A DNA stretch of 44,077 bases from Shigella phage EP23. The stretch is from sequence record JN984867. One strand, given 5' to 3'. This document shows, piece after piece, positions 6,439 through 35,396 of this stretch. The position numbers were made by a program, and so were the translations under genes. Position 1 is the stretch's first letter. Every line of letters starts with the position of its first letter. The notes below the pieces were generated by a model that worked only from the letters and a program-made list of their open reading frames with translations, did not search any database and was not told where the DNA came from.

Positions 6439-6462
6439 TATCATTTCCTCGTTGTTGGTGTG

Positions 6463-6532
6463 CAACCAATATAATGCAACCAACATCTGCAATGCAAGCG
6501 AATTTTGCGATTATTTTTATCGCTGATAATAT
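6463..6532. promoter_or_regulatory. divergent promoter region: leftward TTGCAT-N18-TATATT (clamp-like gene) and rightward TTGCGA-N16-TAATAT (scaffold gene), with two TGCAACCAA motifs
   Basis: Hexamers read directly; shares an extended block (TGCAAG-C/T-GAATTTTGC) with the 24.9 kb promoter. Confidence 0.5.
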
Positions 6533-11373: not shown

Positions 11374-11736
11374 ATGGCTAAAGCACCACTCTTTACACTT
11401 GACCCTAAGCCGACTTTTAAGCTGCCGATTGAAATCCCGCGCCCAGGCGAAAACGAACCGGGCAAAATGACGTTTACCGTGCGCCACCGTCCGATCGACG
11501 AGTTTTCGCAGACCATGCAGGATACTGAGCGCAAGTTATCGGAATATGACGACAATGACCCGGACGGCTTTAACGTTATGGTCGAGGCCATCATGCACGT
11601 AGCAGAAGGCTGGAATCTGCCGGACGAATTTAACGCGGAGAACGTCCGCCGCCTGGTGGTCAACTATCCGCGCGCGTTCGGCGTGTTCCACACTTCGTAC
11701 TATCTCGAACTGATGGGATTGCGTGAAAAAAACTAA
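11374..11736 (+). CDS. tail assembly chaperone (lambda gpG-like)
   Basis: ATG 11374 after GGAGA; small acidic protein immediately upstream of tape measure gene; ends with slippery A-AAA-AAC. Confidence 0.6.
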   Translation: MAKAPLFTLDPKPTFKLPIEIPRPGENEPGKMTFTVRHRPIDEFSQTMQDTERKLSEYDDNDPDGFNVMVEAIMHVAEGWNLPDEFNAENVRRLVVNYPRAFGVFHTSYYLELMGLREKN

Positions 11737-12050
11737 TTGAGGCGGCGCGACGCTTTTATGGCCCGCCGCCACCCTCCGAAGATTTAGCCGCGAGTTTATG
11801 GGGGGCGACCCCGGAAGATGTTTGCCCCCCGGTTGCACTATGGCCCGACAATGCGAAGGTAGTCGCAGTCTTCACAGATTGCTCCACGCAATGGCGCACC
11901 GGATTCGGTGGTGCATACGGCATTGACTACGGCGTACTGGAATGGCTTTTTAAGATGCACGGCATCGAAAACGCGCAGCGTGCGTTTAAAGATATTAAGC
12001 TAATGGAACGCATTGCGCTGGACGAAATGGCGCGGCATAACCCCGCATAG
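11374..12050 (+). CDS. tail assembly chaperone -1 frameshift fusion product (gpGT-like), predicted
   Basis: Heptamer A AAA AAC at 11727-11733 in the zero frame of the chaperone; the -1 frame is open for 105 codons from 11733 to TAG at 12048-12050 (checked codon by codon). Confidence 0.5.
11727..11733 (+). other. candidate -1 programmed ribosomal frameshift slippery site (A_AAA_AAC)
   Basis: Read directly; conserved position 3 codons before chaperone stop. Confidence 0.5.
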
Positions 12051-12380
12051 CAAATCGGGACAGGCGGGACGTCCCGATTTATCCCGTTCTGTCCCGCACA
12101 TCTAAAAACTGCATATTTACCCACTACGATTGCATAAACTAAAAGCGGGACAGGGGTGCTGTCCCGATCTGTCCCGCCCCTCAAAAGTGAATGGCTATGC
12201 GGTTTTTCTGCATAAAACAAACGGGACAGAAAGCGGGACAGAATGAGGCGGGACAAAGCGGGACAGCACCCCTGTCCCAGTCAGTGCTGCCGCGGGTTTT
12301 GACCGATCGGGACAGGCGGGACAACTCCCAGTCTTTCAGACTAGACGGGGGTCAGCGGCCCCCCTCGTCTGAGACTGAAT
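12040..12380. repeat. iteron-rich non-coding region, copy 1 (GCGGGACA / TGTCCCG direct and inverted repeats, CTGCATAAA motifs, 70-bp shared hairpin-containing block at 12308-12377)
   Basis: At least 10 GGGACA-type half-sites, palindromes CGGGACGTCCCG and GGGACAG-N6-CTGTCCC; block identical to 39263-39332. Confidence 0.8.
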
Positions 12381-12446
12381 AAGGTTTGTTTTAAATTCGC
12401 TGATACAATGACCGACGGCAACTGCATAAAAAAGGGGGACTGCATA

Positions 12447-22031: not shown

Positions 22032-23660
22032 ATGGCAGCGGGTACGCTCTCCGTAACGAACAATAGCAAGGCTGTAGTAGGGGTTGGCACAACGTTTACC
22101 GAGTACAAGGCTGGTGACTTCTTATCGCTGGTGGTTGGGCAAGTGCCTTACACCGTGGCGATCGCGTCCATCGAAAGCGCAACCGCGCTCACACTGGTGT
22201 TGCCGTTCGACGGCCCAACGGCGACGGGTCTGGCCTGGGACGGCATCAAACGTGACACCATGTCATTGGCGACGATGGGCGTAACCGTCCAGGCGCAAAA
22301 AGCATTGCGATTGATGATCGCAGATGAGAACAACTGGCGCGCAATCTTCGGAGAAGAAGAGGAAATAACAGTGACGTTACCTAACGGGCAGGTTATGCAG
22401 GGCATGTCATGGGGCTATCTGTCGCAGCTAATGAAGCAGATCGACCCCGTAGAAATGCGCAACCTGCAACAACAGGCCGAGACGGCAAAAAACCAGGCTG
22501 TTACTGCGAAGGGCCAGGCAGAATCAGCGCGCGATGCGGCTAATACAGCAAAAACTGGCGCGGAGAACGCCCGCAACCAGGCCAACACCGCACGTGATCA
22601 GGCCAACACCGCCAAAACAGGCGCAGAATCAGCGCGCGATGCGGCTAATACAGCAAAAACTGGTGCGGAGAACGCCCGCAGCCAGGCGCAAGGGTATCGC
22701 GACGAAGCAGAGCAGTTTAAAAACCAAATCAACCCATCACAGTTCATGCTTAAGTCGCAAAACCTTAGCGACGTAGCGAACAAAGATACGGCGCGGGACA
22801 ATCTGTCACTAGGCCGCACTCAGCGTGCGCAATTTGAGGGGGTTGACCTGTCTAAAAGCGACTGGCCCGGCTTAAGGTTTATTACAACCAGCATGTCACC
22901 AACAGAGGTCGGCTATCGCGTTGTCTTTGAGCATGATTCGAGTGATAACCGCATGGCGCTCTACTGGCGAAATGGCTCAGATGCCAATGGGCAGGCCGCC
23001 GTCCACTTCACCGCGCCTGCCAGCGGGCAGACGCGATTTATTGCATACAAGGAAGAAGTAAACCTTCCAGAAATTACAGGCTGGGGCGTAGCGGCTCCCT
23101 CGCAAGGACCGAGGGCGACGAACGCCACAAACCTTGCGCCGGGGCTTTATTGGGGTACCGTCGCTGACGTCGGCAATCCAATTTCAGGAACACTCGGCAT
23201 GTCGATGCTTCAAACATCAGGATCATCCGCCAATTACCGCTGCCAGTTGGTGTTTCAGGATAGCGCGGGCGGGGCGATGTATCTCCGTTCCAGTAATAGT
23301 AGCGTTTTTGGTAACTACAAGCAGGTAACTACCTCTGCGGTGTCGGATGAGCGCCTGAAAACTGTCCGGGGAAATCTTAATCTAGAAGGTGCGCTGGATA
23401 ACATAAACCGAATGGATTTTAAAATTTTCTCGTTCCTGAGTGATGGGCCGGAACGTAGCTACCGACGCGGCGTTATCTCGCAGCAGATCCGCCAGATTGA
23501 TAAGCAGTACACGAAAGAGATCGGCGGGTACTATCATCTTGATCAGACACCAATGCTACTGGACGCCCTAGCGGCAATTAAAGCATTGCGGGCGCGTGAC
23601 GAGGCTAATAAAGCAGAGATTGCAGAGTTAAAAGCGGCGATTGCAGAATTGAAAAAATAA
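22032..23660 (+). CDS. L-shaped-type tail fiber with internal repeats and C-terminal intramolecular chaperone (peptidase S74-like) domain
   Basis: ATG 22032 after GAGGA; repeated ANTAKTGAENAR units; C-terminus SDERLKTVRGNLNLEG...NRMDFKIFSF resembles S74 autoproteolytic chaperone region. Confidence 0.75.
   Translation: MAAGTLSVTNNSKAVVGVGTTFTEYKAGDFLSLVVGQVPYTVAIASIESATALTLVLPFDGPTATGLAWDGIKRDTMSLATMGVTVQAQKALRLMIADENNWRAIFGEEEEITVTLPNGQVMQGMSWGYLSQLMKQIDPVEMRNLQQQAETAKNQAVTAKGQAESARDAANTAKTGAENARNQANTARDQANTAKTGAESARDAANTAKTGAENARSQAQGYRDEAEQFKNQINPSQFMLKSQNLSDVANKDTARDNLSLGRTQRAQFEGVDLSKSDWPGLRFITTSMSPTEVGYRVVFEHDSSDNRMALYWRNGSDANGQAAVHFTAPASGQTRFIAYKEEVNLPEITGWGVAAPSQGPRATNATNLAPGLYWGTVADVGNPISGTLGMSMLQTSGSSANYRCQLVFQDSAGGAMYLRSSNSSVFGNYKQVTTSAVSDERLKTVRGNLNLEGALDNINRMDFKIFSFLSDGPERSYRRGVISQQIRQIDKQYTKEIGGYYHLDQTPMLLDALAAIKALRARDEANKAEIAELKAAIAELKK
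22519..22686 (+). repeat. two near-identical ~64-bp direct repeats (period 104 bp) inside the fiber gene
   Basis: gcagaatcagcgcgcgatgcggctaatacagcaaaaactgg(c/t)gcggagaacgcccgca(a/g)ccaggc at 22519 and 22623. Confidence 0.85.
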
Positions 23661-23665: not shown

Positions 23666-23687
23666 GGGGCCACACGGCCCCTTTTTT
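23666..23687. terminator. bidirectional rho-independent terminator after fiber gene
   Basis: GGGGCC-acac-GGCCCC hairpin, T6 downstream and A-run upstream. Confidence 0.7.
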
Positions 23688-24261
23688 AGTTTGAGTTTTC
23701 CCAGTCCATTTTGCGCCGCACCAGCGGGCTTTCGTAATATTCCTTCCCCTCCACTTCCAACAAGGGCCAATCGTTCACAATCACGTAGGGTTCCGCAATG
23801 TCCTCAATTACGCCGTGCGCGCTGTGCTGCCCGAATGACACACCAACCAGGATAACACCGGCAACTCGACGTGTGAGGTACTCGTGCGCGCAACGTGCCT
23901 CAACCAGTCCGCGACGGATGCCGCTGGTGGCTTTCACCTCGTAGGTCCAAACGGCATCGATCATGTGCTCACGGTAGTCGGGGCCGGATTTAACCTTGCG
24001 CTTACCGACCATAATAATATCGCCGCGGTCGATGGTGTTGGCGCTAAACAGGCCAGTACGCATTAGCAAGCCTTGCGGTATGCAACTACGCCCGCCTGCC
24101 TGCCCCTCAAGGTACATGCCCGCAAACATCTCGCCAAGCACACCGACGAGACGGCTTTGTTTGCACGCGTCTGACTTTAAACGCCATTGATCAAACTCGA
24201 TGCTTGCTAACATTGCCGCCAGGTGGAATTGTTTACCGGTTATTTCAAATTCTCCGAACAT
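23686..24261 (-). CDS. hypothetical protein
   Basis: 191 aa ORF, GGGGGA RBS before ATG 24261; last gene of leftward early operon. Confidence 0.45.
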   Translation of the reverse strand: MFGEFEITGKQFHLAAMLASIEFDQWRLKSDACKQSRLVGVLGEMFAGMYLEGQAGGRSCIPQGLLMRTGLFSANTIDRGDIIMVGKRKVKSGPDYREHMIDAVWTYEVKATSGIRRGLVEARCAHEYLTRRVAGVILVGVSFGQHSAHGVIEDIAEPYVIVNDWPLLEVEGKEYYESPLVRRKMDWENSN

Positions 24262-24303
24262 TGTGAATCCCCCATTGCTGCGGGCCGAAGCCCGCGATTA
24301 GTG

Positions 24304-24858
24304 TTATTTCAGTGCGCTACGCACCAGTGTTTTTTCCATGTTGCGGAAGTCTTCCGGCGTCATGCAGATTTTCGGTCCGTCTTCGCCGGTGAGCACGACC
24401 ATAGGCTGGGCGTCCTGATCTGCGATGCCAAAATCGCCGGCCTTAACAGTCTTGCCGAACGAGGCTACCGTGTCCTCCGCAACGCGAATTGCGCTGTTAT
24501 ACGCATTAATCTCACCGTCCAGGCGCACGGACAGGCCTTTGAGGCTTTCAAACTGTTCTGCCGTTGTATCGATCTGAATCTCGTCATGCACGGTCATGTA
24601 AGACTCGCCCAGCAGGGAGGCATACGCCACCAGATCCACGATGTTATCTTCCTGGTGCTTACGGTGCTGGCGCACCAGCTTCAGGCAGATTAGGAAGGTC
24701 CAGGCTTCTTGCTCTGTCAAGTCGCGACCGGTAAGCGCGTTAAACACGGCAGCGATTTGTTTAGCGCTGCGTTCTTCTTTCGCGTTGTCATAGCCGTTTT
24801 CTTTCCCGCGCTGTTCCATAGTGGTGGCGGCGTTTTTGCAGTATTCGTATGCTTTCAC
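24304..24858 (-). CDS. hypothetical protein
   Basis: 184 aa ORF, apparent GTG start at 24858; downstream of promoter with palindromic operator. Confidence 0.45.
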   Translation of the reverse strand: MKAYEYCKNAATTMEQRGKENGYDNAKEERSAKQIAAVFNALTGRDLTEQEAWTFLICLKLVRQHRKHQEDNIVDLVAYASLLGESYMTVHDEIQIDTTAEQFESLKGLSVRLDGEINAYNSAIRVAEDTVASFGKTVKAGDFGIADQDAQPMVVLTGEDGPKICMTPEDFRNMEKTLVRSALK

Positions 24859-24904
24859 AGTATTACCCTTTTAGCGAGGGGGCTGTATTGCCCCCGACAC
24901 GTTT

Positions 24905-24947
24905 ACTATAGTGCAACCAACCTATTGGTTGCAAGTGAATTTTGCAA
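24905..24947 (-). promoter_or_regulatory. leftward promoter TTGCAA-N18-TATAGT overlapping perfect inverted repeat TGCAACCAA-ccta-TTGGTTGCA (24912-24933)
   Basis: Hexamers and palindrome read directly on minus strand. Confidence 0.55.
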
Positions 24948-25392
24948 CGTTTATTGCGTAAATTTTCGGGACCAAATCACCACACGCCCGACGAATTGCC
25001 GCGATGTTCTTCGGGCAGTCCTCAATGATGACCAGTTCCGACACGTCCGCATAGCAGACCATTTTGAACACGGCGCACGCCTTAAACTCAGGCGGCGGGG
25101 TGTCGTCCAGCATGTGGCGCATAAACAACCGGCCTACTGGGAAGACCTCCAATTGCTCGGCGGTGGTGTCCCAACATTCTCGCTGCCGGTTTGTCAGATA
25201 CGCGATCTCGAAGCCTTGCTCTTTATACATGCGCAGCAGCGGCAGCATATCCATGTTCAGGTCTTCGCGGACGTGCGCTTTGTGCCACTTCGCCCAAAAG
25301 GTGGATTTCGTTTTTATCCCCGGCACCAGGTCGGCGCGCGCATCGCTTGATCCATTAATAACGCCATCCAGATCACAAATCAGTAATTTCAT
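24922..25392 (-). CDS. HAD-superfamily phosphatase (putative nucleotidase / 3'-phosphatase)
   Basis: N-terminal LLICDLDGVI matches HAD motif I (DxDG); 156 aa; GAGGA RBS. Confidence 0.55.
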   Translation of the reverse strand: MKLLICDLDGVINGSSDARADLVPGIKTKSTFWAKWHKAHVREDLNMDMLPLLRMYKEQGFEIAYLTNRQRECWDTTAEQLEVFPVGRLFMRHMLDDTPPPEFKACAVFKMVCYADVSELVIIEDCPKNIAAIRRACGDLVPKIYAINVAKFTCNQ

Positions 25393-25613
25393 TTCAATTC
25401 CTCAATCAAATTTGCACGAACAGTACGGGCGGAAAACGTGTCACACACAAGATGACAGCGGGCAGTCATTACAAGCCAGCCAGTAAGGTCCATGCCCAGG
25501 AGGTGTTCTGGCCGTGACACGCGACGCACTTTGTTCTCCCTCGGGTTGATTTGGTAGCGTTTAACAATTTCGTCCACGACGCGCATACTGCGATCAACGA
25601 TTAAGATATTCAC
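25389..25613 (-). CDS. hypothetical small protein
   Basis: 74 aa ORF overlapping neighbours by a few nt; apparent GTG start. Confidence 0.3.
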   Translation of the reverse strand: MNILIVDRSMRVVDEIVKRYQINPRENKVRRVSRPEHLLGMDLTGWLVMTARCHLVCDTFSARTVRANLIEELK

Positions 25614-26079
25614 GTAGTTCTCCCTCGCTCATTATTTCAATTTGTGCGCTGCCGGTGGGCGGCGCTTCGTCGAAGATTATCAATTGCTGGCACTTGTTAT
25701 TGCTCGGCCCGACTTCACCAGTTACAGCGTGAATAAATCGGATACGCCAGTCCAGAAGAATTATCAGGTTTGCAGTCTTCCGGGCCAGCTTCGCCCACTT
25801 AGTCGACGTGTCCTGATTCAGTAGCATGACGGTCCGGCGTCCGTGCGCTGCGCACTTGACCCACGGCAGCGGATCGGAATACGGCGGGTTGCACCACTTC
25901 CACCCTTTCAACTCTGACCAGTCCACCTCAAGCGCGCTGTGCTCTGCCGTGAAGTAACGCGGTAGAAGGTGGTTGGCATCGCTCGCCGCCATATCGTAAC
26001 GGAATCGGTACTTCCGGCGCAGCGGTTTAAATAAAGCTGGCGGCGTGCGCCAGCTATCTTTTTGCTCACTCTTCTGCAT
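25594..26079 (-). CDS. DNA N6-adenine methyltransferase (phage Dam-like, orphan)
   Basis: WRTPPALFKPL...DMAASDANHLLPRYFT...WCNPPYSD: NPPY catalytic motif and Dam-type N-terminus; 161 aa. Confidence 0.7.
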   Translation of the reverse strand: MQKSEQKDSWRTPPALFKPLRRKYRFRYDMAASDANHLLPRYFTAEHSALEVDWSELKGWKWCNPPYSDPLPWVKCAAHGRRTVMLLNQDTSTKWAKLARKTANLIILLDWRIRFIHAVTGEVGPSNNKCQQLIIFDEAPPTGSAQIEIMSEGELREYLNR

Positions 26080-26524
26080 GATCTGGATCTATCGCGTACA
26101 GGGCAATTTTCTTATTACTGTTTAGAACGCGTTGCACGCGCTTTGATTCCTCGGTGCCGAGTGGTCGGCAGTCGGAGTAGTAAGACCCGTTCCCCCGCCA
26201 CGCAACCAGCACCAGGTCTTTCCGGTCAATCTTAGACTGGCGGCCCTTCGGACGCACGTACTCCTCGGCCCGTTTGCAATGCTCACGCAGACCATCGGCA
26301 GTGATGCGGTTTAGTGCAACGCTGGTGGTGTATCCGGTGCGCTGCATAATCCCCATCAATTTGAAAAGCAGTTCGAAGCGCTCCTCTAGCTCCTGGCGCA
26401 CTTTCTTCTCTCCTTCATATAGCGCCTGGTTGGTGTCCACCAACGCGTTAGCCCGTTCGGCCTGTTCGCGGGCTTCGAGGCATTGCGCGGCCCAGTAATC
26501 TTTTTCTTCTTGTAAAATTCTCAT
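26066..26524 (-). CDS. hypothetical protein
   Basis: ATG 26524 (MRILQEEK) after GGAGA RBS; track ORF extends upstream to 26599. Confidence 0.45.
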   Translation of the reverse strand: MRILQEEKDYWAAQCLEAREQAERANALVDTNQALYEGEKKVRQELEERFELLFKLMGIMQRTGYTTSVALNRITADGLREHCKRAEEYVRPKGRQSKIDRKDLVLVAWRGNGSYYSDCRPLGTEESKRVQRVLNSNKKIALYAIDPDHAEE

Positions 26525-26565
26525 CGTGTTGTCTCCAGGTATTAAAAAGGGCGTCCAACCGGACA

Positions 26566-26610
26566 CCCTCAATATAATGCAACCAATATGCTTATGCAAC
26601 CAATTTACGC
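26566..26610 (-). promoter_or_regulatory. leftward promoter region with two TTGGTTGCA motifs (TTGCAT-N17-TATATT)
   Basis: Read on minus strand: ttggttgcataagcatattggttgcattatatt. Confidence 0.5.
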
Positions 26611-26922
26611 ATAAAAATTTGGGTCGCGCGCAACGTCTACCAAGTAAAGGTTACTAATGCGGTTGCCGTAGTGGCCAGGTGTGCGCTGACGGCACACTAC
26701 GGCATAGCCTGGAGGTATTGTATTGCCAGTCTCGATAATCCACGCCACGCGTGCGCCAGACAGCGTCTTGCCGTTGCACTCGATACGAGTACCGCCATCA
26801 GTAGTATTGAGGTTGCCAATCTTGCAGCCGGTGGATTTCAGACGGATGACTCCGGTTTTGCTGTCGTAGGTGAATAGCTGGTTAGTCATTGCGACCGAAA
26901 AATCGATTGGTTCGAATGTCAT
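26605..26922 (-). CDS. HNH-endonuclease-like protein with apparently substituted catalytic residues
   Basis: LFTYDSKTGVIRLK...GKTLSGARVAW...GNRISNLYLV follows the phage HNH_3-type pattern, but the expected His/Asp positions read A and C-R. Confidence 0.45.
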   Translation of the reverse strand: MTFEPIDFSVAMTNQLFTYDSKTGVIRLKSTGCKIGNLNTTDGGTRIECNGKTLSGARVAWIIETGNTIPPGYAVVCRQRTPGHYGNRISNLYLVDVARDPNFYA

Positions 26923-26923
26923 T

Positions 26924-28351
26924 TTAAATTTTCCTCGTTTTCTTAGCTTTCATGTATTCCATCAAGTCGTCCTGGATATCTCGCCTACTGTCGCGACGCT
27001 CGGCGACCAATTCGTCCAGTGTCCCGCGAGCCTGGATAATGTAGACGAATACTGGTCGAGGGTGTCCGGCTTGCATCTGGCGAACCGGCCCGATACGTTC
27101 AACGATCTGCGAAAAGTGCTCAAAGTTCCAGGTATCGGAGAAGATTGCCAGGTGATGTCCGCCGTCCTGCAAGTTAAGGCCGTGGCCTGCCGATGCCGGG
27201 TGTGCAAACATGATGGGGATCTCGCCCCTGTTCCACGCTTCCATATCCTTATTGCCCTGCTTACCCTTACCCAACGCGACGCCGTGCGGAAATTTCTTCT
27301 TAAGACGTGCCAGATCATGCTTGTACTGATACGCAACGAGCAACGGCGCGCCGTTCAACTCCTCCACGATACTTTCCAGCGCGTCCAGCTTCGCGTCGTG
27401 AATCTTCACCCACTCGTCGGTCCGTTCGCCGTCTTCGTCCACCTTATACACAGCGCCGGATGCAAGCTGAAGGCACTTAATTGTCTTCGCCGCGGCGTTC
27501 GCCGCTTCCACTGTTCCGCTTTCCAGTTCGGCAAATAGCTCGCTTTCAAACTGGTCATAAATCTTGCGGGCTTTCTTCGGCAGGTCCACAACAACCGGCG
27601 TATAGATTGGCTTGTCACACCCGAAGTATTCAGCCGCATCAACGGTTAGCGACACGTCGGACAGTCGTTGTTGTATTTCTTTCTCGGAGTTCTTAAGCGG
27701 GGCGTGCTGCATCGTGAAGCTGCCAGGCTTAACAGGCTTGCTAATAAACCAGCGGTCCGTGAACGCCTTATAGCTACTGCCGAGACGTTCGCCGCCGTCG
27801 ACAAACCACGTCTGACCCCATAGGTCTTTCAGCCCGTTCGGTGCGGGTGTGCCAGTCAGGTTAATCCAGCGCTTGACGTGCTTATGTGCGATCGCTGCCA
27901 GCGCACGGGCGCGCTTACTTCCCTGCTTGCTTCTATAGCCTTTCAGCTTAGTGGATTCATCGGCAACCACGACCGTAAAGGGCCACTCGTCGCCGCAATA
28001 CTCAACAAGCCACTCAACTACATCATAGTTAATACAAACCACGTTAGCGTCGCTCTCAAGCGCAGCGATGCGGTCCTTCTCTGGCCCAGTGCCGTCTACT
28101 ACCAGCAAGGCTGGGAAGCGCCATTTCTCCTGTTCCGGGGGCCATGTACCGGACGCAACGCGCAGCGGGGCCAGCACCAGTACGCGGTCATCCTGGTTGG
28201 ACAGGATGCCAGTCTGGAACATTTTATTCAGCGCCCACATGGTCGCGCCGGTTTTACCCGACCCCATTGTCGCCCATATATTGCATCGCTTATGCTTGAG
28301 GATGAACGCGGTTATCAACTTCTGATATTCGCGACGTCGGAAACGTGCCAT
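26924..28351 (-). CDS. SNF2/DEAD-like superfamily-2 helicase
   Basis: Walker A MGSGKTGAT, DExx-like VVADESTK; start taken at ATG 28351 (MARFRRR), track ORF runs to 28441. Confidence 0.7.
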   Translation of the reverse strand: MARFRRREYQKLITAFILKHKRCNIWATMGSGKTGATMWALNKMFQTGILSNQDDRVLVLAPLRVASGTWPPEQEKWRFPALLVVDGTGPEKDRIAALESDANVVCINYDVVEWLVEYCGDEWPFTVVVADESTKLKGYRSKQGSKRARALAAIAHKHVKRWINLTGTPAPNGLKDLWGQTWFVDGGERLGSSYKAFTDRWFISKPVKPGSFTMQHAPLKNSEKEIQQRLSDVSLTVDAAEYFGCDKPIYTPVVVDLPKKARKIYDQFESELFAELESGTVEAANAAAKTIKCLQLASGAVYKVDEDGERTDEWVKIHDAKLDALESIVEELNGAPLLVAYQYKHDLARLKKKFPHGVALGKGKQGNKDMEAWNRGEIPIMFAHPASAGHGLNLQDGGHHLAIFSDTWNFEHFSQIVERIGPVRQMQAGHPRPVFVYIIQARGTLDELVAERRDSRRDIQDDLMEYMKAKKTRKI

Positions 28352-28355
28352 TTCT

Positions 28356-28589
28356 TTATTCCGCCTTTTTCCAGACTTCAGTTTCACTATCCCAGTTCCT
28401 CTTTGTGGCGTCGTAGTTGGTGGCGTGTCCGACGTGGACACCGGTAGCCCGGAAGCTCTTAAATTTTTGCCAGCACACCGTCAACGGCAGTGGGTAATTT
28501 AGGCCCGCGATAAACCACACGCGATCGCCTGGTTTACATTCGCCCAGCTTGGTGAGTCGGTAATGTTCTTTCATCGTCATGTCTCCCAA
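28356..28589 (-). CDS. hypothetical protein
   Basis: 77 aa ORF. Confidence 0.35.
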   Translation of the reverse strand: MGDMTMKEHYRLTKLGECKPGDRVWFIAGLNYPLPLTVCWQKFKSFRATGVHVGHATNYDATKRNWDSETEVWKKAE

Positions 28590-28617
28590 AAATGGCGGGA
28601 CAAGCCCGCCGTATTAA

Positions 28618-28791
28618 TTATTTTTGTTCTGCACGGTAGCGGCGCTGCCGTTCGCGCTCTTTCTTATTGCGGCACGATTTGCACTCTGCCCGATACCCGT
28701 CTGGACTGCGCGCAGTCTTACCGGTGTATTTGTGGAACTGGGATAGCGGCTTTACACAGCCGCAATTACTACAACGTTTTTCTTCAATCAT
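28618..28791 (-). CDS. small zinc-ribbon protein (CxxC...CxxC)
   Basis: MIEEKRCSNCGCVKPLSQF...YRAECKSCRNKKERERQRR; start at internal ATG 28791. Confidence 0.4.
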   Translation of the reverse strand: MIEEKRCSNCGCVKPLSQFHKYTGKTARSPDGYRAECKSCRNKKERERQRRYRAEQK

Positions 28792-28831
28792 CTCTAAAAT
28801 CCTCGATATGGCTAACCGGCACACTATACCG

Positions 28832-29110
28832 CTATGCGACCAATTCAGCAACCAATAAATCGCAGTCGGATATGTTGTCGATAACGCGAACGTCAGCACC
28901 GCGGCGGGCCATTCGCTCATGTTCACGTACCTGGTGCGGCTTCGGTTTTCCTCCGGGGCGCTTCACTTCGACGAACACTATTTTGCCGTTGATGATAATA
29001 ATCAGGTCGGGCGCACCTGCGCGCCCCTCCCATGCCAGTTTTCGGCAGAATCCGCCAACATCTTTCACCCGTCTCATCAGGTGGCTTTGAATCTTGCCTT
29101 CTGGTGTCAT
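28832..29110 (-). CDS. VRR-NUC domain nuclease (PD-(D/E)XK)
   Basis: GAPDLIIIINGKIVFVEVKRPGGK core; start ATG 29110 overlapping polymerase stop. Confidence 0.55.
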   Translation of the reverse strand: MTPEGKIQSHLMRRVKDVGGFCRKLAWEGRAGAPDLIIIINGKIVFVEVKRPGGKPKPHQVREHERMARRGADVRVIDNISDCDLLVAELVA

Positions 29111-32100
29111 TACTTGCGGTAGCGATACATGCAATCGCCCTCTGCGGCAAGTGGGAAGCCTTTCGCCCAAACCGGCAGGTCGCACATCAGCGCGCACAAC
29201 TCCTCGGTTGTGTAGTCGTCGGTATCCGGCACTTCGGTTATCAGCTCATCGTGTACGGAAAGTACGATCTCATACCCCGCAGCTTCAACGCCAGGCATGG
29301 ACCATGCGAGAATATCGCGGCACAACGCCTGTACGATGTTTTCCGTCAGTTTGCCGCCGTAGGTATACTGGAATCCCCACTGGCGCGTCGTCTGATTCTC
29401 GCCCTGATATTTAATGCGTGTGCTGGTGCGCTTCTTGCCGGTGTCTTCGTCGATCTCGGTCGTGACAGACAGCGCGATGCCAGGGTAGCTCATGATGCGC
29501 CCTGACGGCAACTCAATTTTAAGCCACCACCCCGCCGCGTTCGGGTCGTCGCGCTCCTCGTCGAAGGTCGGGTCATGCTTCGCCTTCGTTCGAACAATTT
29601 TGAGCGCTTTCCTGCCATCCGGGCGAACGTTCGCGCCAGCCCAGTACGCTTTGCCCGGATTGCGGATCGCGCAGAGCACCGCGTCCTCCAGTTCGGCCCA
29701 AAAGGCTACCGTCATCGGGTGAGACTCACGCCACATACGTTTGATCGCGTCACACGTCAGCCACACGTTTTTCGGCAGTATGTAAGTTGGGCGCTCGTCT
29801 TTCTTGCCAGGCTTCGGCGGGCGCTTCTCCTCGTTAATGCGAGCGTACTCATAACCCCGCTTCGCCGCCGCCCAAATGTGATCCGGGAATGTGCCCTTCA
29901 TGACGTCAGCCATAGTGTAAAGGTCGAGGCCCAGGTTTTTAGCGAACTGCAAGAACGCCGCGACGCCGCCACCATAGCCCAGGCCAAGCTCGCAGTTATG
30001 CGCCACCAGAAAACCAGACTTAGACGCAATAAGGAACCGGTTTCCGTCTTCCACATCAATCAGGTCGTAAACCGGCTCGCAATAGGTTAACTTCCCGTTC
30101 CAGTTCAGCAATGCGGGTAAGGGCTTCATCGTACTTTCTCTGAAGCTCGGGCACGCTGCGCCGGTTACGGCAGTTTTCCGAACGGCTGACAAACCGAAGG
30201 TTTCCAGGCTCATAGTCGCCGTCTGTATCGATCCTGTCCATTTCGAAGTCTGGCTTATCCCAGCCGTCCAGCGTTTGAACGTAGAGAAGAAACGACCTTT
30301 TATCTCTCTTCCATTCGTCACATACGGCAATCCCACGACCGCCGTAGTTTTTATACCCTTTGGCGCGGGGGTTTGTCGTTCGTGATATTGCCGCTGACAG
30401 CCGGTTGAGTAGCCGCGTTCTGTGCGCATCGTCTGGCATTGCGTCATCGTAGCAAAAATACTGTTTACGATACCGCTTTGTCGCTTCAATTGCGCAGAGG
30501 TTGCATTGGGATGTTTTACCCCTTCGGACGTTGTCATACCCGACGCGTCCTGGCATCGCTCCGCAATCACATTGGGCCAGCAGTTGTCTGTGACCCTGTC
30601 GTTTTGGTAATTCGCGCAGGATAACCAGGCGTCCATACCTCTCGCCAGGGCGCGGACCATCGTGCACCTGTCTGAAACGAGTTGCCTTGCCTCCTTCCAT
30701 GAATGCGTCAAGATTTTGTGGTCTTCTGTCATCAAGACCCCGTCCACGTCTATCACTGGTTTCCACCCCATAAGGTGCGCGCCTTTTGTACTCACCCATT
30801 TTTCGCCGTTCCATACTTTATCCGTTGATGTTACGGCCATAATATCCTTGAACCCGCCATTGGTCAATACTTGGGTATGGCGGTGCAAGCAAGCCTTACC
30901 GATCTGGCGTAAGTCCTTGCGGTTGGCTTTAATGTAATCCGGGTCAAGGCCGAACATCTTACCGGCAGTCTCGCAATAGATATCGCGACCGGCCTTAAAG
31001 ACCATTAACGCTGTTTTCTCGCCAGCGATCCAGGCAAGTCCACGCCCTTCCACATTGGAGTAGTCCGCTACGACAAACTTCTTGCCCTTCGCCGGAATAA
31101 TGCACCCGCGAACGGTCGAGGCCGTTAGCTTCGATATGTCATACGCCCAGTGTGCGGTCCCGCGTAACAGGGAGTTGATGCCGTTGGTGAGCATGTGCGA
31201 CCGGACCCAAAACGAGACGTCGCTTTCACCCTCGCGGCGTTTAATCTTCCCTTCGTGGTCGTCGCTGTACTCGCCACGCGCCAGGTTTTGAGGCTGGAAG
31301 CCTTTGCCCGCCCAGCGCAGCGTGCGCTTTGCGCCGCCATACTGAAGACACCCACGGCGGCGACCATCTGCGGATAAGCCGTTAACTAGCGGATTGTACT
31401 TAGTCGATGCCGTTGATGACGCCCCGAGGCGCATTTCGATAAGCGCTTTGCCTTCGTCGGGGAAGTCCGGGTCTTCAAGCAGGTCGTTAAGCGTGGATTT
31501 CTGCGCGTTGTGGATCGTGAACGCCGGGGCGATATCACGCAGGATTGGCAGGAAGTCATTGCCTGTCAGCTTACCGCCAAATCGCTCCCAGGCTTCTTCC
31601 TTCAATTCTTCCTTATGCGCCTGCACCGCTTTGATCGCGGCGTTCGCCAGGTCAACGTCGACGTAGAAGCCGCGGTCGTTAATCAACTGGTCGATGAGCA
31701 GGATTTCATCTTCCTTAGGCGAGTTTCCCCAGTCCGGTATGCGCCAGTAGACTTCACGCATTGCGATAATATCCAGCGCGGCATAGCGCAGAAATTTGGC
31801 CCATTCTTCCGGGTGAGTCTCGCGAGTGTAGCGGCGGATTTTGTAGGTCTTAGGGGTAGGCTTACAGAATCGGTTAATCAGCGCCTTGCCTGCCTTATCC
31901 TTCGCGTGCTCTGCGTCAACGCCCAGAACCTGGCACTGCATATCGAGGCTACCGGGCAGCGCGTGGCGAAAGGCCATAATCATAGTGTCTTCGATCTGGC
32001 TTACCGGCAGGTCAATACCCCACTTCTCGCGGATAACCAGGCGGTCAAACAGGAGGCCGTTAGCCATCACTATTTTAGCCTTCTTGCGGGATACCCGGCG

Positions 32101-32298
32101 GAGCGCCTTGCGCAGTTCACGCGGCATTGTGGGGGATTCAGTGGCATCCCATGTCTGCACGCGGCCCTCGTCTATGGCGTAGGTGCAAATCATAATCTCT
32201 GTGGTTGGGTGCTCCGCGTAGGCGTACGCCCCAACTTTCTTCAGGTCCACCCCGCTAAATGTCTCGGTGTCGAGAAACAGGCGTTCGAAGTCTTTCAT
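29110..32298 (-). CDS. family A DNA polymerase with 3'-5' exonuclease domain, interrupted by an intein in motif B
   Basis: Exo motif FLDTETFSG, motif A ADYSNVEGR, motif C LSVHDEL; motif B split as RQIGKA / intein / CELGLGYGG. Confidence 0.9.
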   Translation of the reverse strand: MKDFERLFLDTETFSGVDLKKVGAYAYAEHPTTEIMICTYAIDEGRVQTWDATESPTMPRELRKALRRVSRKKAKIVMANGLLFDRLVIREKWGIDLPVSQIEDTMIMAFRHALPGSLDMQCQVLGVDAEHAKDKAGKALINRFCKPTPKTYKIRRYTRETHPEEWAKFLRYAALDIIAMREVYWRIPDWGNSPKEDEILLIDQLINDRGFYVDVDLANAAIKAVQAHKEELKEEAWERFGGKLTGNDFLPILRDIAPAFTIHNAQKSTLNDLLEDPDFPDEGKALIEMRLGASSTASTKYNPLVNGLSADGRRRGCLQYGGAKRTLRWAGKGFQPQNLARGEYSDDHEGKIKRREGESDVSFWVRSHMLTNGINSLLRGTAHWAYDISKLTASTVRGCIIPAKGKKFVVADYSNVEGRGLAWIAGEKTALMVFKAGRDIYCETAGKMFGLDPDYIKANRKDLRQIGKACLHRHTQVLTNGGFKDIMAVTSTDKVWNGEKWVSTKGAHLMGWKPVIDVDGVLMTEDHKILTHSWKEARQLVSDRCTMVRALARGMDAWLSCANYQNDRVTDNCWPNVIAERCQDASGMTTSEGVKHPNATSAQLKRQSGIVNSIFATMTQCQTMRTERGYSTGCQRQYHERQTPAPKGIKTTAVVGLPYVTNGREIKGRFFSTFKRWTAGISQTSKWTGSIQTATMSLETFGLSAVRKTAVTGAACPSFRESTMKPLPALLNWNGKLTYCEPVYDLIDVEDGNRFLIASKSGFLVAHNCELGLGYGGGVAAFLQFAKNLGLDLYTMADVMKGTFPDHIWAAAKRGYEYARINEEKRPPKPGKKDERPTYILPKNVWLTCDAIKRMWRESHPMTVAFWAELEDAVLCAIRNPGKAYWAGANVRPDGRKALKIVRTKAKHDPTFDEERDDPNAAGWWLKIELPSGRIMSYPGIALSVTTEIDEDTGKKRTSTRIKYQGENQTTRQWGFQYTYGGKLTENIVQALCRDILAWSMPGVEAAGYEIVLSVHDELITEVPDTDDYTTEELCALMCDLPVWAKGFPLAAEGDCMYRYRK
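29995..30891 (-). mobile_element. intein (299 aa) in DNA polymerase motif B
   Basis: Insert starts with Cys (codon 30889-30891), ends ...LVAHN followed by Cys (+1); Hint-like blocks CLHRHTQVLTNGG, TEDHKIL, VYDLIDVEDGNRFLIASKSGFLVAHN; excision restores R-x3-K-x3-LG-x2-YG. Confidence 0.8.
30056..30814 (-). CDS. HNH homing endonuclease encoded in an alternative frame inside the intein
   Basis: YGRLVIL...CDCG...RGKTSQCNLC and GYKNYGGRGIAVCDEW...DRIDTDGDYEPGNLRFVSRSENCRNR match phage HNH/His-Me finger proteins; frame differs from polymerase (30814 mod 3 = 1 vs 32298 mod 3 = 0); true start may be an internal Met (~30700). Confidence 0.7.
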   Translation of the reverse strand: MERRKMGEYKRRAPYGVETSDRRGRGLDDRRPQNLDAFMEGGKATRFRQVHDGPRPGERYGRLVILRELPKRQGHRQLLAQCDCGAMPGRVGYDNVRRGKTSQCNLCAIEATKRYRKQYFCYDDAMPDDAHRTRLLNRLSAAISRTTNPRAKGYKNYGGRGIAVCDEWKRDKRSFLLYVQTLDGWDKPDFEMDRIDTDGDYEPGNLRFVSRSENCRNRRSVPELQRKYDEALTRIAELEREVNLLRAGLRPD

Positions 32299-32465
32299 TG
32301 CTTTATCCTCACTACGGCGTCAGCGCTGCCGATCATGGAGAAGATGCCGTCGGACAGGGCGATCTCTTCGCCGTTGTTGCGAATCTCGGCAACTGTGAAA
32401 TATTCCCCCAGTAGCTTGGACCATACTTGCATTCCGACTTTTACTTCGCTGGCTTTAATACGCAT
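32295..32465 (-). CDS. small protein (56 aa) translationally coupled to DNA polymerase
   Basis: ATG 32465 after AGGA; stop TGA overlaps polymerase ATG (ATGA); translated by hand, not in ORF track (below size cut-off). Confidence 0.35.
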   Translation of the reverse strand: MRIKASEVKVGMQVWSKLLGEYFTVAEIRNNGEEIALSDGIFSMIGSADAVVRIKQ

Positions 32466-32523
32466 TTTTCATTGTCCTGTTAAAAAGCCCGCATTAAGCG
32501 GGCTTGAATAGTGGGCTTTGCCC

Positions 32524-33198
32524 TTAACGGCGGCGACGTTTACGTGGCGCTTCGTCTTCGTCGTCGTCTTCGTCATCGTCATCACGACGTTTTGACTTTT
32601 TGGACTTACGCGGGCTTTCATCTTCGTCATCGTCGCCCAGGTCTTCGTCGGAACATGAAGACCCGCCACCGCCGAAGGCTTCGCCGTCATCACGGAAGCG
32701 CATACCCAGCAGACCACAGCCTAAGCCTTTGCCGTTGGTATTGTTCCAGGCCCAAATATCTAAGGAAACGTTGCAATAGCAACCGGAATAGATTTCCTTC
32801 CCTTCGATTTCGTCGCCGTCGATGGTCAGACCCTGCTCCGTCTGCTTCTCGCCTTCGGAAGTCTGGATGATCGGCTGTTTGAACGATTTGGCGTTGATGT
32901 ACAACATGCCTTCGAATTCTTCGGTTACTTCGTCGCGCTCGTCACCGTCGCGAACTGCGCATTCCTTAGAATCCTGGGCGTAGTGGCGGTCCATCCACTT
33001 ATCAGCATTCTTCTCGGATTTCAGCTTGTCGGTTAGCACTGCGCGCGCTGCCGCTTCCACTTTGTCCACCTGCGGATCTTCTTTATCAAGAAGAATCACT
33101 GCACGGTATGCCGGTTTTTGTCCATCCTGTTTAGGGGTATCACGTTCCCAAATTTTAAGGAAACATACGCGCACATTTTTCAGGTTGACTTTAGCCAT
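32524..33198 (-). CDS. ssDNA-binding-like protein (DUF2815-like, putative) with poly-acidic/basic C-terminal tail
   Basis: ATG 33198 after GAGGA; C-terminus DEDLGDDDEDESPRKSKKSKRRDDDDEDDDEDEAPRKRRRR; adjacent to Cas4-like nuclease and polymerase. Confidence 0.45.
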   Translation of the reverse strand: MAKVNLKNVRVCFLKIWERDTPKQDGQKPAYRAVILLDKEDPQVDKVEAAARAVLTDKLKSEKNADKWMDRHYAQDSKECAVRDGDERDEVTEEFEGMLYINAKSFKQPIIQTSEGEKQTEQGLTIDGDEIEGKEIYSGCYCNVSLDIWAWNNTNGKGLGCGLLGMRFRDDGEAFGGGGSSCSDEDLGDDDEDESPRKSKKSKRRDDDDEDDDEDEAPRKRRRR

Positions 33199-33254
33199 TT
33201 TCCAATTCCTCATTTTCACATGTATCGGGGTTATTGGAAGCCACCCCGTTCGGC

Positions 33255-33285
33255 TTGGTTGCTAATTTACTTGGTTGCGCCTGAG
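33255..33285 (-). promoter_or_regulatory. pair of TTGGTTGC motifs 18 bp apart upstream of SSB-like gene
   Basis: cttggttgctaatttacttggttgcg read directly. Confidence 0.35.
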
Positions 33286-33288
33286 CGG

Positions 33289-33531
33289 TCAAGCATTTTC
33301 ATTAAAAAGATTTCGGGTAACGTAGTTGGTCGCGTTCTCGATCCAGCTTAACGGCGGGCGGTTGATGTTCTTCTCCACCCAATCGACGGCAGCTTCGCTA
33401 TAGCCGTCATCCAGCCAGCGGGTCGGATGTCTAATCATCCATGCCACCATTAACACGCCTTGCACACAATGCAGGATAAAGCCCAGCGCGCCGATAACAA
33501 ACATCAATAAGATTGCGAATACTTTATTCAT
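33289..33531 (-). CDS. small membrane protein
   Basis: 80 aa, hydrophobic segment AILLMFVIGALGFILHCVQGVLMVAWMI. Confidence 0.4.
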   Translation of the reverse strand: MNKVFAILLMFVIGALGFILHCVQGVLMVAWMIRHPTRWLDDGYSEAAVDWVEKNINRPPLSWIENATNYVTRNLFNENA

Positions 33532-34954
33532 TGCTTAAGTCCTCGTCAGTAGCTACAGACCACGCAGGGCGCGGGTCGTCGATGGGTGCTAATACCGGTT
33601 TAGCTGGTGCGCGCGTGATTTTATCACACAGCTTCGCCCATACTTTCGGCTTCTCGTCCTTCAATACCTTCTCGGCATCAGTAGGGCTGAGTAATGTTTC
33701 TTTGTACATCACATCGCGCTTGATCCGGGCCTTCGTGAAGATTTCAATCACTTCGCTTTCGTCCGCCCACTTGCGAATCCCTTCCTTACCTGCAACCATC
33801 TTGAGGCCCAGCGATTCGCCGTCGCCCGCCATCACAGCCTTGAATACCGCGGACTCGATAGCCTTGATGTGCTGGCGCATTGCGTCCAGGCCTTCATAAG
33901 CCTTGCGCAGTTCCGCGGCGGTCATAGCGCCGGGGGCCGCTTCTTTCTTGCCACGCTTCGCACGTCGTGCCGCTTTGCGGGCTTCGCGGGCCATATTGCG
34001 GTCGTGATTGGCGCATTCTTCCTCTGTCGCAATACTCACGTCGTCGCCCAGGTCTTCGTCTGTTGCCGTTGGTGGGGTCATCGTGCCGATTGCAGCCTTA
34101 GCGCGGGCGCTACACTGATCCGCAAATCTGCACCACTGACACGCATCAACGCTCGGTCGGAAGTCGGCGCGGGTGAGTCCCTTTTTTCCGCGGGAGTACG
34201 CTTCCAGGGCGGCGATAGCACGCTTGGACGCAAACTTAGCGAATATCTCCAGGGCTTCTACCGAAATATCCCACTCCGACGCCCCGCCGCAATACGGCTG
34301 GAAGATAACAAGGCGCACGGTTGTAATGTCGTACATAGTTTTCAGCTTGCGCAGCAAGCCCAGCGCATACAACATAAGCTGTTTGTTTTCTTTCGCCTCG
34401 ACCTTATGCCGCCCCGTCTTCAGGTCGCCAACAATCAGCATGTACGTGCCGTCGGTCTTCTTCATGACCATGACCATATCGGCAGTACCGAACGTCTTAA
34501 CCCGGTTGCCGTCGATCTCGAAGCCTGAGTGAAGGACGCGGGTCAGATCGGCGCGCATCTCAAGCTGAACAAACTCCGCCACTTCGAGGAGCGGTCGCCA
34601 GTGGTCGATGTACGCGTCGCACTGTTTCACCATGTCGTCGTTGACCAGTACGCCGCCTTTCGGTGCTTTCGGGTGGGCCTTTACCGGCCCCTTACCTTCG
34701 TTCTCTACGTAGCACCCTTTGTACGTCTTAGCGGTTATCAGCTTCTCCCCGGCAATGATGCGGTTTAGCACCACTTCAGATACGGTGTGCATACTCGTAC
34801 CGTTAATCGCCGCTTGCCCGGATTCGTTCGGGATATCTTTTTCCACCACCAGGGCGGCGGGACACCCCATCCATTTTTTAGCACCGGATGGGCCAAGTAA
34901 TGAGTGTTCCGTATTACTACCGGATTGCGTTTTACGTTTTGGTTTAATCGCCAT
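33524..34954 (-). CDS. PD-(D/E)XK exonuclease, Cas4/RecB-like with C-terminal Cys cluster (DUF2800-like)
   Basis: IVGDLKTGRHKVEAKENKQLMLYALGL (D-x-K, QxxxY) and DACQWCRFADQCS cysteine motif; 476 aa. Confidence 0.6.
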   Translation of the reverse strand: MAIKPKRKTQSGSNTEHSLLGPSGAKKWMGCPAALVVEKDIPNESGQAAINGTSMHTVSEVVLNRIIAGEKLITAKTYKGCYVENEGKGPVKAHPKAPKGGVLVNDDMVKQCDAYIDHWRPLLEVAEFVQLEMRADLTRVLHSGFEIDGNRVKTFGTADMVMVMKKTDGTYMLIVGDLKTGRHKVEAKENKQLMLYALGLLRKLKTMYDITTVRLVIFQPYCGGASEWDISVEALEIFAKFASKRAIAALEAYSRGKKGLTRADFRPSVDACQWCRFADQCSARAKAAIGTMTPPTATDEDLGDDVSIATEEECANHDRNMAREARKAARRAKRGKKEAAPGAMTAAELRKAYEGLDAMRQHIKAIESAVFKAVMAGDGESLGLKMVAGKEGIRKWADESEVIEIFTKARIKRDVMYKETLLSPTDAEKVLKDEKPKVWAKLCDKITRAPAKPVLAPIDDPRPAWSVATDEDLSNE

Positions 34955-35133
34955 TATTCCACCCGTGTAAACTGGACAATTACATATTTCACATTCGCCA
35001 AGCCCGCTTTTTCGACACGGCTGCGCACTTCATGCTGCGCATCGGTCCAGCACATCGAGGCGTCCTTGTTAACAACAAGAAAAGAGAAATGGTCGTTTAA
35101 TTCGTGGCAAGTTGCCAGCACGAAAAATTTCAT
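34954..35133 (-). CDS. small protein (59 aa), translationally coupled
   Basis: ATG 35133, stop TAA overlapping nuclease ATG (TAATG); hand-translated. Confidence 0.3.
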   Translation of the reverse strand: MKFFVLATCHELNDHFSFLVVNKDASMCWTDAQHEVRSRVEKAGLANVKYVIVQFTRVE

Positions 35134-35384
35134 TATTTTGTCTCCCAGCGGTCAATTGTTTTTGCTTCGGATGCAACGGCGAAGCGAACATATTCCAGAT
35201 TGGAGTCAGCCCAAATATAAAAATCGGGGTTAGTAAAGGTGGTGCGCTTAATTTGCGCGGGGGTGTTGCGGCGTTTATCTATTACGGCAACGCGGGATTG
35301 AAAGCTGCCGATGCGTTCGAATAGCCAATAGTACGGGCGCTGGTCGCGGGAATCCACCGCCTCGATTAGCGTGAATCGTGCCAT
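35133..35384 (-). CDS. hypothetical protein
   Basis: 83 aa ORF with GAGGA RBS. Confidence 0.4.
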   Translation of the reverse strand: MARFTLIEAVDSRDQRPYYWLFERIGSFQSRVAVIDKRRNTPAQIKRTTFTNPDFYIWADSNLEYVRFAVASEAKTIDRWETK

Positions 35385-35396
35385 TGTCTCGTCCTC

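Follow-up and report, generated by a model that had tools for sequence, protein, structure and literature searches.

Two non-coding gaps of a phage genome, one within the tail operon and the other directly after the gene of a primase-helicase, contain copies of the same array of short repeats (iterons) with adjoining AT-rich DNA and a hairpin. Judged from the comparisons among related phages described below, this element is a conserved, duplicated protein-binding module. We assign a probability of about one half to the reading that each copy is a replication-initiation module, the two copies forming a bipartite or double iteron-type origin. In the Dhillonvirus and HK578 literature on origins, iterons and termini, we found no description of the element or of a replication origin.

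Genome setting of the two copies

The stretch of DNA analysed here (the window) is 44,077 bp long and comprises the entire genome of a Dhillonvirus, an HK578-like siphophage of E. coli. Structural genes occupy 56-23660 on the plus strand, with the terminase genes at 56-2013, and are followed on the minus strand by a T7-like replication set (23686-36306) comprising a family A polymerase, a gp2.5-like SSB, an exonuclease and a helicase. A second plus-strand block starts at 36481 and encodes a 109-aa HTH protein, the 754-aa primase-helicase, small genes, lysis genes and an exonuclease. The tail region matched 157 phage records at 80-96% identity; the non-coding stretch alone matched the same 157 records, nearly all of them at two places each.

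Copy 1 lies between the tail chaperone and tape measure genes. Within the chaperone gene, the heptamer A AAA AAC at 11727-11733 is a -1 slippery site; the -1 frame T part of the chaperone (the DUF1799 part) stops at 12050, and the tape measure gene begins with the ATG at 12447. The whole intervening gap (12051-12446) is conserved in 16 aligned Dhillonviruses and in relatives is crossed by non-triplet 1-nt indels, which, together with the two gene boundaries, bears out the claim of a preliminary description of this DNA that the iteron and hairpin element is non-coding. Copy 2 occupies the gap 39086-39548, which begins directly after the primase-helicase stop at 39085 and has the early primase-helicase operon on one side and the lysis and structural genes on the other. 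GenBank records label the region "terminator" or "repeat_region", or give it spurious ORFs. Cumulative GC skew, which the preliminary description had proposed as a means of locating an origin, does not serve that end here, as it tracks gene orientation and singles out neither copy.

Anatomy of the duplicated module

The heptamer CGGGACA occurs 22 times in the window, compared with 6.06 +/- 2.04 times in dinucleotide shuffles, whose maximum was 10 (0 of 100 shuffles reached 22). Seventeen of the 22 fall in the two non-coding gaps 12051-12446 and 39086-39548, 11 of them at 12056-12323 in copy 1 and six at 39177-39278 in copy 2. With the looser core GGGAC[AG], the counts rise to 14 for copy 1 and 7 for copy 2; iteron spacings are 9-16 bp. 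This clustering and duplication of CGGGACA is far above chance.

Self-comparison matched 12305-12382 to 39260-39337 at 97% identity, which contains the 70-bp block (12308-12377 and 39263-39332) already reported as identical in both copies, and 12244-12278 to 39200-39234 at 94%; the copies are thus similar beyond chance. Their homology, previously put at about 130 bp, in fact covers a shared unit of ~197 bp (12186-12382 versus 39141-39337), with ~80% identity in the iteron part. The copies lie 26,955 bp apart, and the arc between them the other way round measures 17.0 kb.

The shared unit opens with the box GTGAAT(A/G)G(T/C)TATGC in AT-rich DNA, followed by CTGCATAAA and then by four iterons in direct orientation plus one inverted; ~30 bp of spacer DNA separate these from a pair of adjacent iterons, after which comes a 50-nt imperfect palindrome. 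In copy 1 the unit starts within an AT-rich core (12181-12221, plus strand) that holds the box as GTGAATGGCTATGC (12187-12200) and CTGCATAAA (12208-12216). The plus-strand iterons that follow (12222-12279) comprise direct CGGGACA at 12222, 12234, 12249 and 12259 and an inverted CTGTCCC ending at 12278; the adjacent pair at 12308 and 12317 (12308-12323, plus strand) abuts the hairpin, whose palindrome spans 12328-12377. The corresponding elements of copy 2, likewise on the plus strand, are an AT-rich core (39130-39171) with the box GTGAATAGTTATGC (39142-39155) and CTGCATAAA (39163-39171), iterons at 39177-39235 (direct CGGGACA at 39177, 39189, 39205 and 39215, then inverted CGTCCCGC) and the adjacent pair at 39263-39278. 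The copy 2 palindrome, at 39283-39332, is identical to that of copy 1.

Upstream of the shared unit, copy 1 continues into an additional half that includes iterons of opposite orientation. Its left iteron cluster (12056-12096) consists of CGGGACA on the plus strand at 12056, the palindrome CGGGACGTCCCG at 12065-12076 and CGGGACA on the minus strand at 12090, and is followed by an AT-rich stretch (12097-12145) containing CTGCATATT at 12109 and TTGCATAAA at 12130. The segment 12145-12180, with three iterons (+,-,-), is the left arm of an internal inverted repeat of 32-36 nt and is 94% complementary to 12247-12278; inverted iteron blocks flank the AT-rich core. The palindrome first written with a 6-nt spacer has one of 5 nt, GGGACAG-N5-CTGTCCC. 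The 40-bp segment 12100-12139 of copy 1 is 68% AT, at the 98.7th percentile of the genome, and 39130-39169 of copy 2 is 78% AT; the most AT-rich 40-bp segment of the entire genome starts at 39135, adjoining the copy 2 iterons.

Folded as DNA, the hairpin at 12328-12377 has a computed energy of -13.2 kcal/mol on the plus strand (z -3.4) and -13.7 on the minus strand (z -3.6). In 21 hairpin variants, 93-95% of cells pair, versus at most 56% in slid controls, and across lineages the stems are invariant and the loop is variable. Compensatory change is confined to two pairs, so that the structure is backed by conserved complementarity rather than by compensation. The hairpin is followed directly on its 3' side by AATAAGG in copy 1 and CATAAAA in copy 2. 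Because a T-run is absent, it is not a classical (rho-independent) terminator, and a terminator scan of its plus strand was empty.

Several short motifs surround the modules. An extended -10 promoter-like element, TGaTACAAT, read from the sequence at 12401-12409 (plus strand), is invariant in the 16 Dhillonviruses; its predicted start (12415-12417) falls on ACGGCAAC (12415-12422, plus strand), a copy of a polar octamer located 38 nt 3' of the copy 1 hairpin. A simple sigma-70 scan, which requires a -35 hexamer, found nothing at 12401-12409. The octamer ACGGCAGC (39358-39365, plus strand) lies 26 nt 3' of the copy 2 hairpin, and one octamer occurs 25-40 nt 3' of each hairpin in every lineage read. 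Throughout the window ACGGCA(A/G)C is found 45 times against 4.6 expected (34 on the plus strand, 11 on the minus strand), about once per kb, in all reading phases and in intergenic DNA; its plus-strand bias persists where genes lie on the other strand, both in the window and in phage STP-1. The copy 2 module is bracketed by the motif ATTGGTTGCC at 39116-39125 (plus strand) and an inverted ATTGGTTGC motif at 39397-39405 (minus strand), which closes it. ATTGGTTGC marks the -35 of a sigma-70-like promoter class.

Conservation within Dhillonvirus

Alignment of 16 copy 1 regions reveals invariant iteron cores, TGCATAAA boxes, hairpin stems and downstream TGaTACAAT, together with variable inter-iteron spacers and a variable hairpin loop. 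Invariant cores separated by freely changing spacers support the view that the repeats behave as protein-binding sites. Among the eight genomes with both copies, the iteron parts of copy 1 and copy 2 are 0.77-0.82 identical within the same genome and 0.77 identical between genomes, and each copy is 0.86 identical to its own counterpart in other genomes. Since the two copies are about as unlike within a genome as between genomes, the comparison points to an old duplication in which both copies are kept by selection, and not to recent conversion. Concerted evolution of the copies was considered and rejected: it is absent in the iteron part, and in this genome the identical 70 bp do not extend beyond the hairpin block.

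Replacement of the iteron motif in distant relatives

To look beyond the genus, primase-helicase homologues at 44-68% identity were taken together with their flanking DNA. In six of the seven relative lineages read there, an array with a motif of that lineage follows the primase-helicase stop immediately; in Kagunavirus XY2, none does. Arrays right after the stop are present in the window, in STP-1 and in the lineages L045-L048, L093, L095 and L096. STP-1 (Guernseyvirinae) displays the same layout after the gene, built from GGGGAGA. At this position L045 retains CGGGACA and the hairpin, L046 uses GGTGCCA and has a palindrome, GGTGCCAgcaccatTGGCACC, that mirrors GGGACAgcacccctGTCCC, L047 uses GCGGCCAAC and L048 uses GCTGCCAAC.

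Arrays are likewise present between the chaperone and tape measure genes of lineages in which chaperone identity is down to 57-65%. The repeat there is CGGGAC(A/G) in L064, L065 and L079, GTGTGCCAAA in L066 and GTGTGGCA in L094, the last two retaining a Dhillon-type hairpin. No array was found in the tail operon of STP-1, which makes the site beside the primase-helicase gene the older one.

Where both gaps of a genome were read, the word of that lineage is common to both and nearly absent elsewhere in the 21-kb locus. CGGGACR occupies both gaps in L079/L080, and CTCGCAA/TTGCGAG arrays do so in L096; the two gaps contain five and one of the six locus copies of GCTGCCAA in L093, and four and one of the seven locus copies of GCAGCCAA in L095. 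At least eight iteron types have been placed on this one architecture, including GGTGCCA, GTGTGCCAAA, GTGTGGCA, GGGGAGA, GCTGCCAAC and CTCGCAA. Three distant lineages, together with those that have CGGGACR, supply the evidence for a joint switch within the same genome; one copy was read in each of the GTGCCA and GTGTGGCA lineages, which were not found in IMG/VR.

A fixed grammar, a replaceable word and the joint switching of both loci argue for sites of one co-evolving trans-acting protein, and we infer that a single protein reads both loci. Such a pattern of motif switching is hard to reconcile with an RNA element. The hairpin, in turn, is unchanged in the iteron-swapped L066 and L094, which suggests that the two elements have separate readers: that of the iterons varies, whereas that of the hairpin is conserved. 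Two copies 27 kb apart had struck the preliminary description as unusual. The two copies are real, but across the lineages compared they are a conserved trait of a wide clade and not an oddity of one genome.

Candidate reader proteins

The 754-aa primase-helicase (36821-39085, plus strand) combines an AEP primase, a Zn motif, a RepA-like SF4 helicase (AAA_25) and a predicted C-terminal winged helix, and is the most plausible candidate trans factor for the iterons. Using a modelled structure, the best solved-structure match of the AEP primase fold was 6zp9, the cyanophage S-2L PrimPol (E 3.4e-5). The helicase part matches AAA_25 (RepA-like) at 6e-19, with the RSF1010 RepA structure 1g8y reaching E 0.46 only, and no match to P4 alpha was found among solved structures. 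The winged helix (residues ~664-738) is modelled with a pLDDT of 83-90 and matches the winged helices of MarR, H1 and RIOK2 with prob 0.9-1.0. The best conserved part of the protein is the Zn-finger region.

Sliding-window identity identified no segment of the primase-helicase that clearly tracks iteron type. The recognition helix of the winged helix does not follow iteron type either, its sequence in L045 (CGGGACA) being closer to that in L046 (GGTGCCA) than to that in the window. The one stretch in which the window and L045 fall together is residues ~101-180 of the primase core, and there the grouping is weak. The neighbouring small proteins gave no signal tracking iteron type, and a separate RepC-like iteron-binding initiator was not found among the scanned neighbour proteins.

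The 109-aa HTH protein (HTH109; Sigma70_r4_2 / HTH_23; 36481-36810, plus strand) shares an operon with the primase-helicase and had been put forward as a binder of the array. The HTH sequence, GKSWAMIAEiTGINvSTVRSWVRN, does not differ between the window, L045 and L046, although L046 has the iteron GGTGCCA. Because the HTH stays the same while the iteron differs, HTH109 is excluded as the specificity determinant, and the original suggestion becomes unlikely. HTH109 more likely reads the conserved ATTGGTTGC promoter motif.

A binder shared with IMG/VR contigs that carry GCGGGACA arrays beside primase/helicase genes (L009, L011, L013/L035, L024, L025) was also considered and discarded. Within this set only the L024 helicase core is homologous, and a common C-terminal domain is absent; the octamer is common to these unrelated contigs because it was used as the search pattern. 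An IMG/VR search with the GTGTGGCA pattern likewise returned 12 unrelated arrays. From these unrelated IMG/VR arrays it follows only that arrays of this sort are frequent as origin-like features. A plasmid with this replicon was not substantiated either, as the sole full-length match is a 44-kb record with a 34% identical protein, taken as a misfiled phage genome.

A putative replication-initiation module

Our reading of each copy as an initiation module draws on the adjacency of the primase-helicase gene, the AT-rich DNA, the iteron grammar, the enzyme domains and the precedents discussed below. Three features expected of an iteron origin, namely a repeat cluster with inverted copies, adjacent AT-rich DNA and lineage-specific iterons, are all present. 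A further one, a position beside a replication protein gene, is found for copy 2, whereas copy 1 adjoins no replication gene.

With respect to mechanism, we infer binding, melting, priming and the identity of the iteron reader as follows. A phage initiator, most plausibly the primase-helicase acting through its winged helix or another domain, would bind the CGGGACA iterons co-operatively and melt the adjoining AT-rich box, at which the RepA-like hexameric helicase would be loaded. Unwinding could then allow the invariant 50-nt palindrome to extrude as a hairpin on either strand, and the extruded hairpin may provide the start signal for the AEP primase in the manner of an IncQ ssi site. Copy 2, beside the primase-helicase gene, would represent the ancestral origin, and copy 1, in the tail operon, an old second site for the same reader, functioning either as a second origin or as a cis-acting helper like P4 crr.

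A more elaborate version would have the lineage-variable iterons load the fused AEP-primase/SF4-helicase and the invariant hairpin prime both strands, from two same-orientation cassettes whose separations round the circular map are 17 and 27 kb, with ACGGCA(A/G)C as the programmed lagging-strand start site of the primase. We consider this scheme unlikely.

Alternative functions

The preliminary description had named replication origins, partition sites and multimeric regulator binding sites as the typical uses of such arrays. An assignment of this general kind is upheld by the invariant cores and the motif switching, and among its options the origin is best supported and the partition site is not, for the reason given below.

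Control of transcription is the strongest of the alternatives, and we regard it as doubtful. The arrays would be sites for a lineage-specific late-gene regulator, the hairpin would block or process read-through and a promoter would follow, such that copy 2 marks the early/late boundary and the tape measure and distal tail genes have their transcription reset at copy 1. The location of copy 2, separating the early primase-helicase operon from the lysis and structural genes, fits this proposal, as does that of copy 1, which stands mid late operon and is followed by the invariant TGaTACAAT. Equivalent -10 elements occur at this place in other lineages (TAAACT in L079, TGcTACAAT in L066), and the 3' arm of the hairpin occupies the expected -35 position of the copy 1 promoter. 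No matching -10 follows the copy 2 hairpin, however, the copy 2 promoter lying 150 bp further on. Although the HK578 and WF5505 annotations mark a terminator in the gap, the hairpin has neither a T-run nor a hit in the plus-strand terminator scan. The sole nearby HTH regulator, moreover, keeps an invariant HTH while the iteron changes. An array of six to 14 sites that face both ways and adjoin the genome's most AT-rich DNA has the grammar of an origin rather than of an activator, and STP-1 retains the array after its primase-helicase gene but has none in the tail operon. Under the replication-initiation reading, the extended -10 after copy 1 and the position of copy 2 at the early/late boundary suggest that the modules may also shape late transcription.

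Some other DNA transaction appears improbable, whether packaging recognition (pac, small terminase repeats), a recombination hot spot or partition-like anchoring. Small-terminase and centromere sites are indeed also built of arrayed short repeats, which co-evolve with the protein that binds them, and several public records and contigs start or end within copy 1. These record ends nevertheless correspond to assembly breaks at the 70-78-bp exact repeat, and the relatives' contigs P0134 and P0135 (17.4-17.7 kb) are near in length to the 17.0-kb inter-copy arc. The conserved position is beside the replication gene, not the terminase genes (56-2013), and we know of no headful genome that sets a precedent for two pac sites. 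Nor is there support for a partition site: a scan of 24 different window proteins (PHROGs and/or Pfam) gave no ParA/ParB-like match.

A structured non-coding RNA transcribed from both loci, for example a protein sponge with GGGACA loops and a stable terminal hairpin, is the least probable and would be a very surprising outcome: the repeats of the shared unit all point one way, the unit ends in a strong hairpin, the RNA fold of 12186-12400 has a z of -2.4 and GGA-containing repeats recall CsrB-type sponges, yet Rfam 15 gave 0 matches at gathering score in the whole window (only far sub-threshold generic or miRNA-like hairpin matches), no promoter was found upstream of the unit, the copy 1 iterons lie in both orientations, the hairpin has no U-tract and the motif is replaced wholesale, including by the GGA-free GTGTGCCAAA and CTCGCAA, with the arrangement retained.

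Implications

Dhillonviruses are among the most often isolated coliphages, and the 157 matching records include BASEL and Sorek-lab model phages. For these phages, a two-site replication-initiation module would offer defined targets for working out how replication begins in a T7-like replisome that contains an AEP-primase/RepA-helicase fusion, and the at least eight iteron types on one scaffold provide natural specificity swaps with which to find the reader domain. The module is also a candidate source of the origin hairpins that the Lamassu and OLD defence systems are proposed to sense. HK578 escapers of OLD map to this primase-helicase operon (bioRxiv 10.64898/2026.07.10.737580). At a practical level, the exact repeat explains the recurrent assembly breaks in the genus.

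Comparison with known systems

The SaPI pri-rep-ori and lambdoid O/ori systems resemble the module described here in that the origin adjoins the initiator gene or is contained in it, and iterons flank AT-rich DNA. In both, iteron sequence and initiator specificity differ between related elements. Unlike the Dhillonvirus module, they have a single origin per element, employ different protein families and possess no conserved palindrome.

Besides its origin (ori), satellite phage P4 has a second, distal repeat site, crr. As in the window, two clusters of the same short repeat, each with direct and inverted repeats, lie kilobases apart on one small replicon that encodes one multifunctional primase-helicase with a C-terminal winged helix, a domain that is predicted in the present case. 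P4 alpha binds its origin repeats through the winged helix (PMC4234260). In contrast, alpha unites a Toprim primase with an SF3 helicase, whereas the protein studied here joins an AEP primase to a RepA-like SF4 helicase. Thus the P4-type arrangement of two distant sites with the same repeat is found in the window and homology to alpha is not; no sequence homology to P4 was detected, and P4 is without a conserved long palindrome.

The Sulfolobus plasmid pRN1 has an operon of a small DNA-binding protein and an AEP primase-helicase with a winged helix, a gene order recalling that of HTH109 and the primase-helicase. Its origin is a long stem-loop just downstream of the primase-helicase gene orf904 and still works when moved (PMC4234260). 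As an archaeal plasmid with an SF3 helicase, no iterons and a single copy of the element, pRN1 differs from the phage in other respects.

RSF1010 (IncQ) relies on iterons, the RepA helicase and a primase that specifically recognises ssi stem-loops (PMC4234260). No separate initiator like RepC was found among the scanned neighbour proteins of the Dhillonvirus, where primase and helicase are fused and the closest solved primase fold is that of the cyanophage S-2L PrimPol, not RepB'. The phage module furthermore has one imperfect palindrome in place of the two ssi sites (ssiA/ssiB) and is present twice. With these differences, the RSF1010 oriV shares with the module an order of elements in which iterons stand beside AT-rich DNA and are followed by hairpin-forming sequence, which in the phage may be usable on both strands; the phage helicase is a candidate member of the RepA family (Pfam AAA_25).

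Strand-polar and promoter-like motifs

Across the whole window there are 45 copies of the octamer ACGGCA(A/G)C against an expectation of 4.6, with 34 on the plus strand and 11 on the minus strand. It is found in intergenic DNA as well as in all three reading phases, and because the plus-strand bias also holds where the genes lie on the minus strand, the octamer tracks the DNA strand and not transcription. One copy stands directly 3' of each hairpin, the 50-nt imperfect palindrome, at 12415-12422 in copy 1 (the gap between the tail chaperone and tape measure genes) and at 39358-39365 in copy 2 (after the primase-helicase gene). The octamer is likewise enriched in phages Gluttony, LM40P1, STP-1 and XY2, and it could serve as a primase start signal or as a Chi-like polarity signal.

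A second motif, ATTGGTTGC, is present in 12 exact copies in the window, and in 27 when up to one mismatch is allowed (11.7 expected). Its copies fall mainly in pairs, with sites at 6462-6484, 24913-24932, 26579-26604, 28836-28856, 36282, 39116, 39397, 39487-39526 and 42491-42522. ATTGGTTGC provides a TTGCAT -35 element, followed at a distance of 17-18 nt by a TATATT, TATAGT or TAGATT hexamer, so the motif appears to mark a class of phage promoters; its candidate reader may be the HTH protein resembling sigma-70 region 4 (36481-36810).

Coding features of the genome

The tail assembly chaperone gene has a -1 slippery heptamer, A AAA AAC (11727-11733), near its 3' end, and the shifted frame encodes the DUF1799 T part (11736-12050), which several GenBank records annotate as a separate ORF. 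The DNA polymerase ORF (29110-32298, minus strand) encodes 1062 aa versus 763 aa in Gluttony; its Pol A matches are interrupted at residues 487-858 by a PHROG endonuclease match, and the extra segment resembles an inserted intein or homing endonuclease. The tail fibre gene contains 65-nt tandem repeats that keep the reading frame (22518-22687). Repeats of 90 nt (35769-35951) lie in the gene that opens the leftward operon and encodes an acidic/basic repeat protein.

The repeat loci in public records and in other viruses

Several GenBank records and metagenome contigs, including L057 and L067, start or end in the interior of copy 1; these ends are probably assembly breaks at the exact repeat of 70-78 bp and not physical genome ends. 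Contigs of 17.4-17.7 kb are similar in length to the arc of 17.0 kb that separates copy 1 from copy 2. The gap between the chaperone and the iteron array is a hot spot for gene additions in related lineages, which have acquired one or two short genes (57-126 aa) on the reverse strand at this place, after the T part and before the array (L064:2174-2554, L065:2174-2922, L066:2162-2335 and L094:13616-13789).

In L045, a relative of EP23, copy 2 is followed by a (CACG)n tract (L045:5590-5615). In unrelated viral contigs, inverted blocks of GCGGGACA triplets that adjoin primase or helicase genes flank long alternating purine-pyrimidine tracts of CG/CA repeats (L009:6435-6720, L011:5224-5460, L013:4360-4800 and L025:4887-5000).
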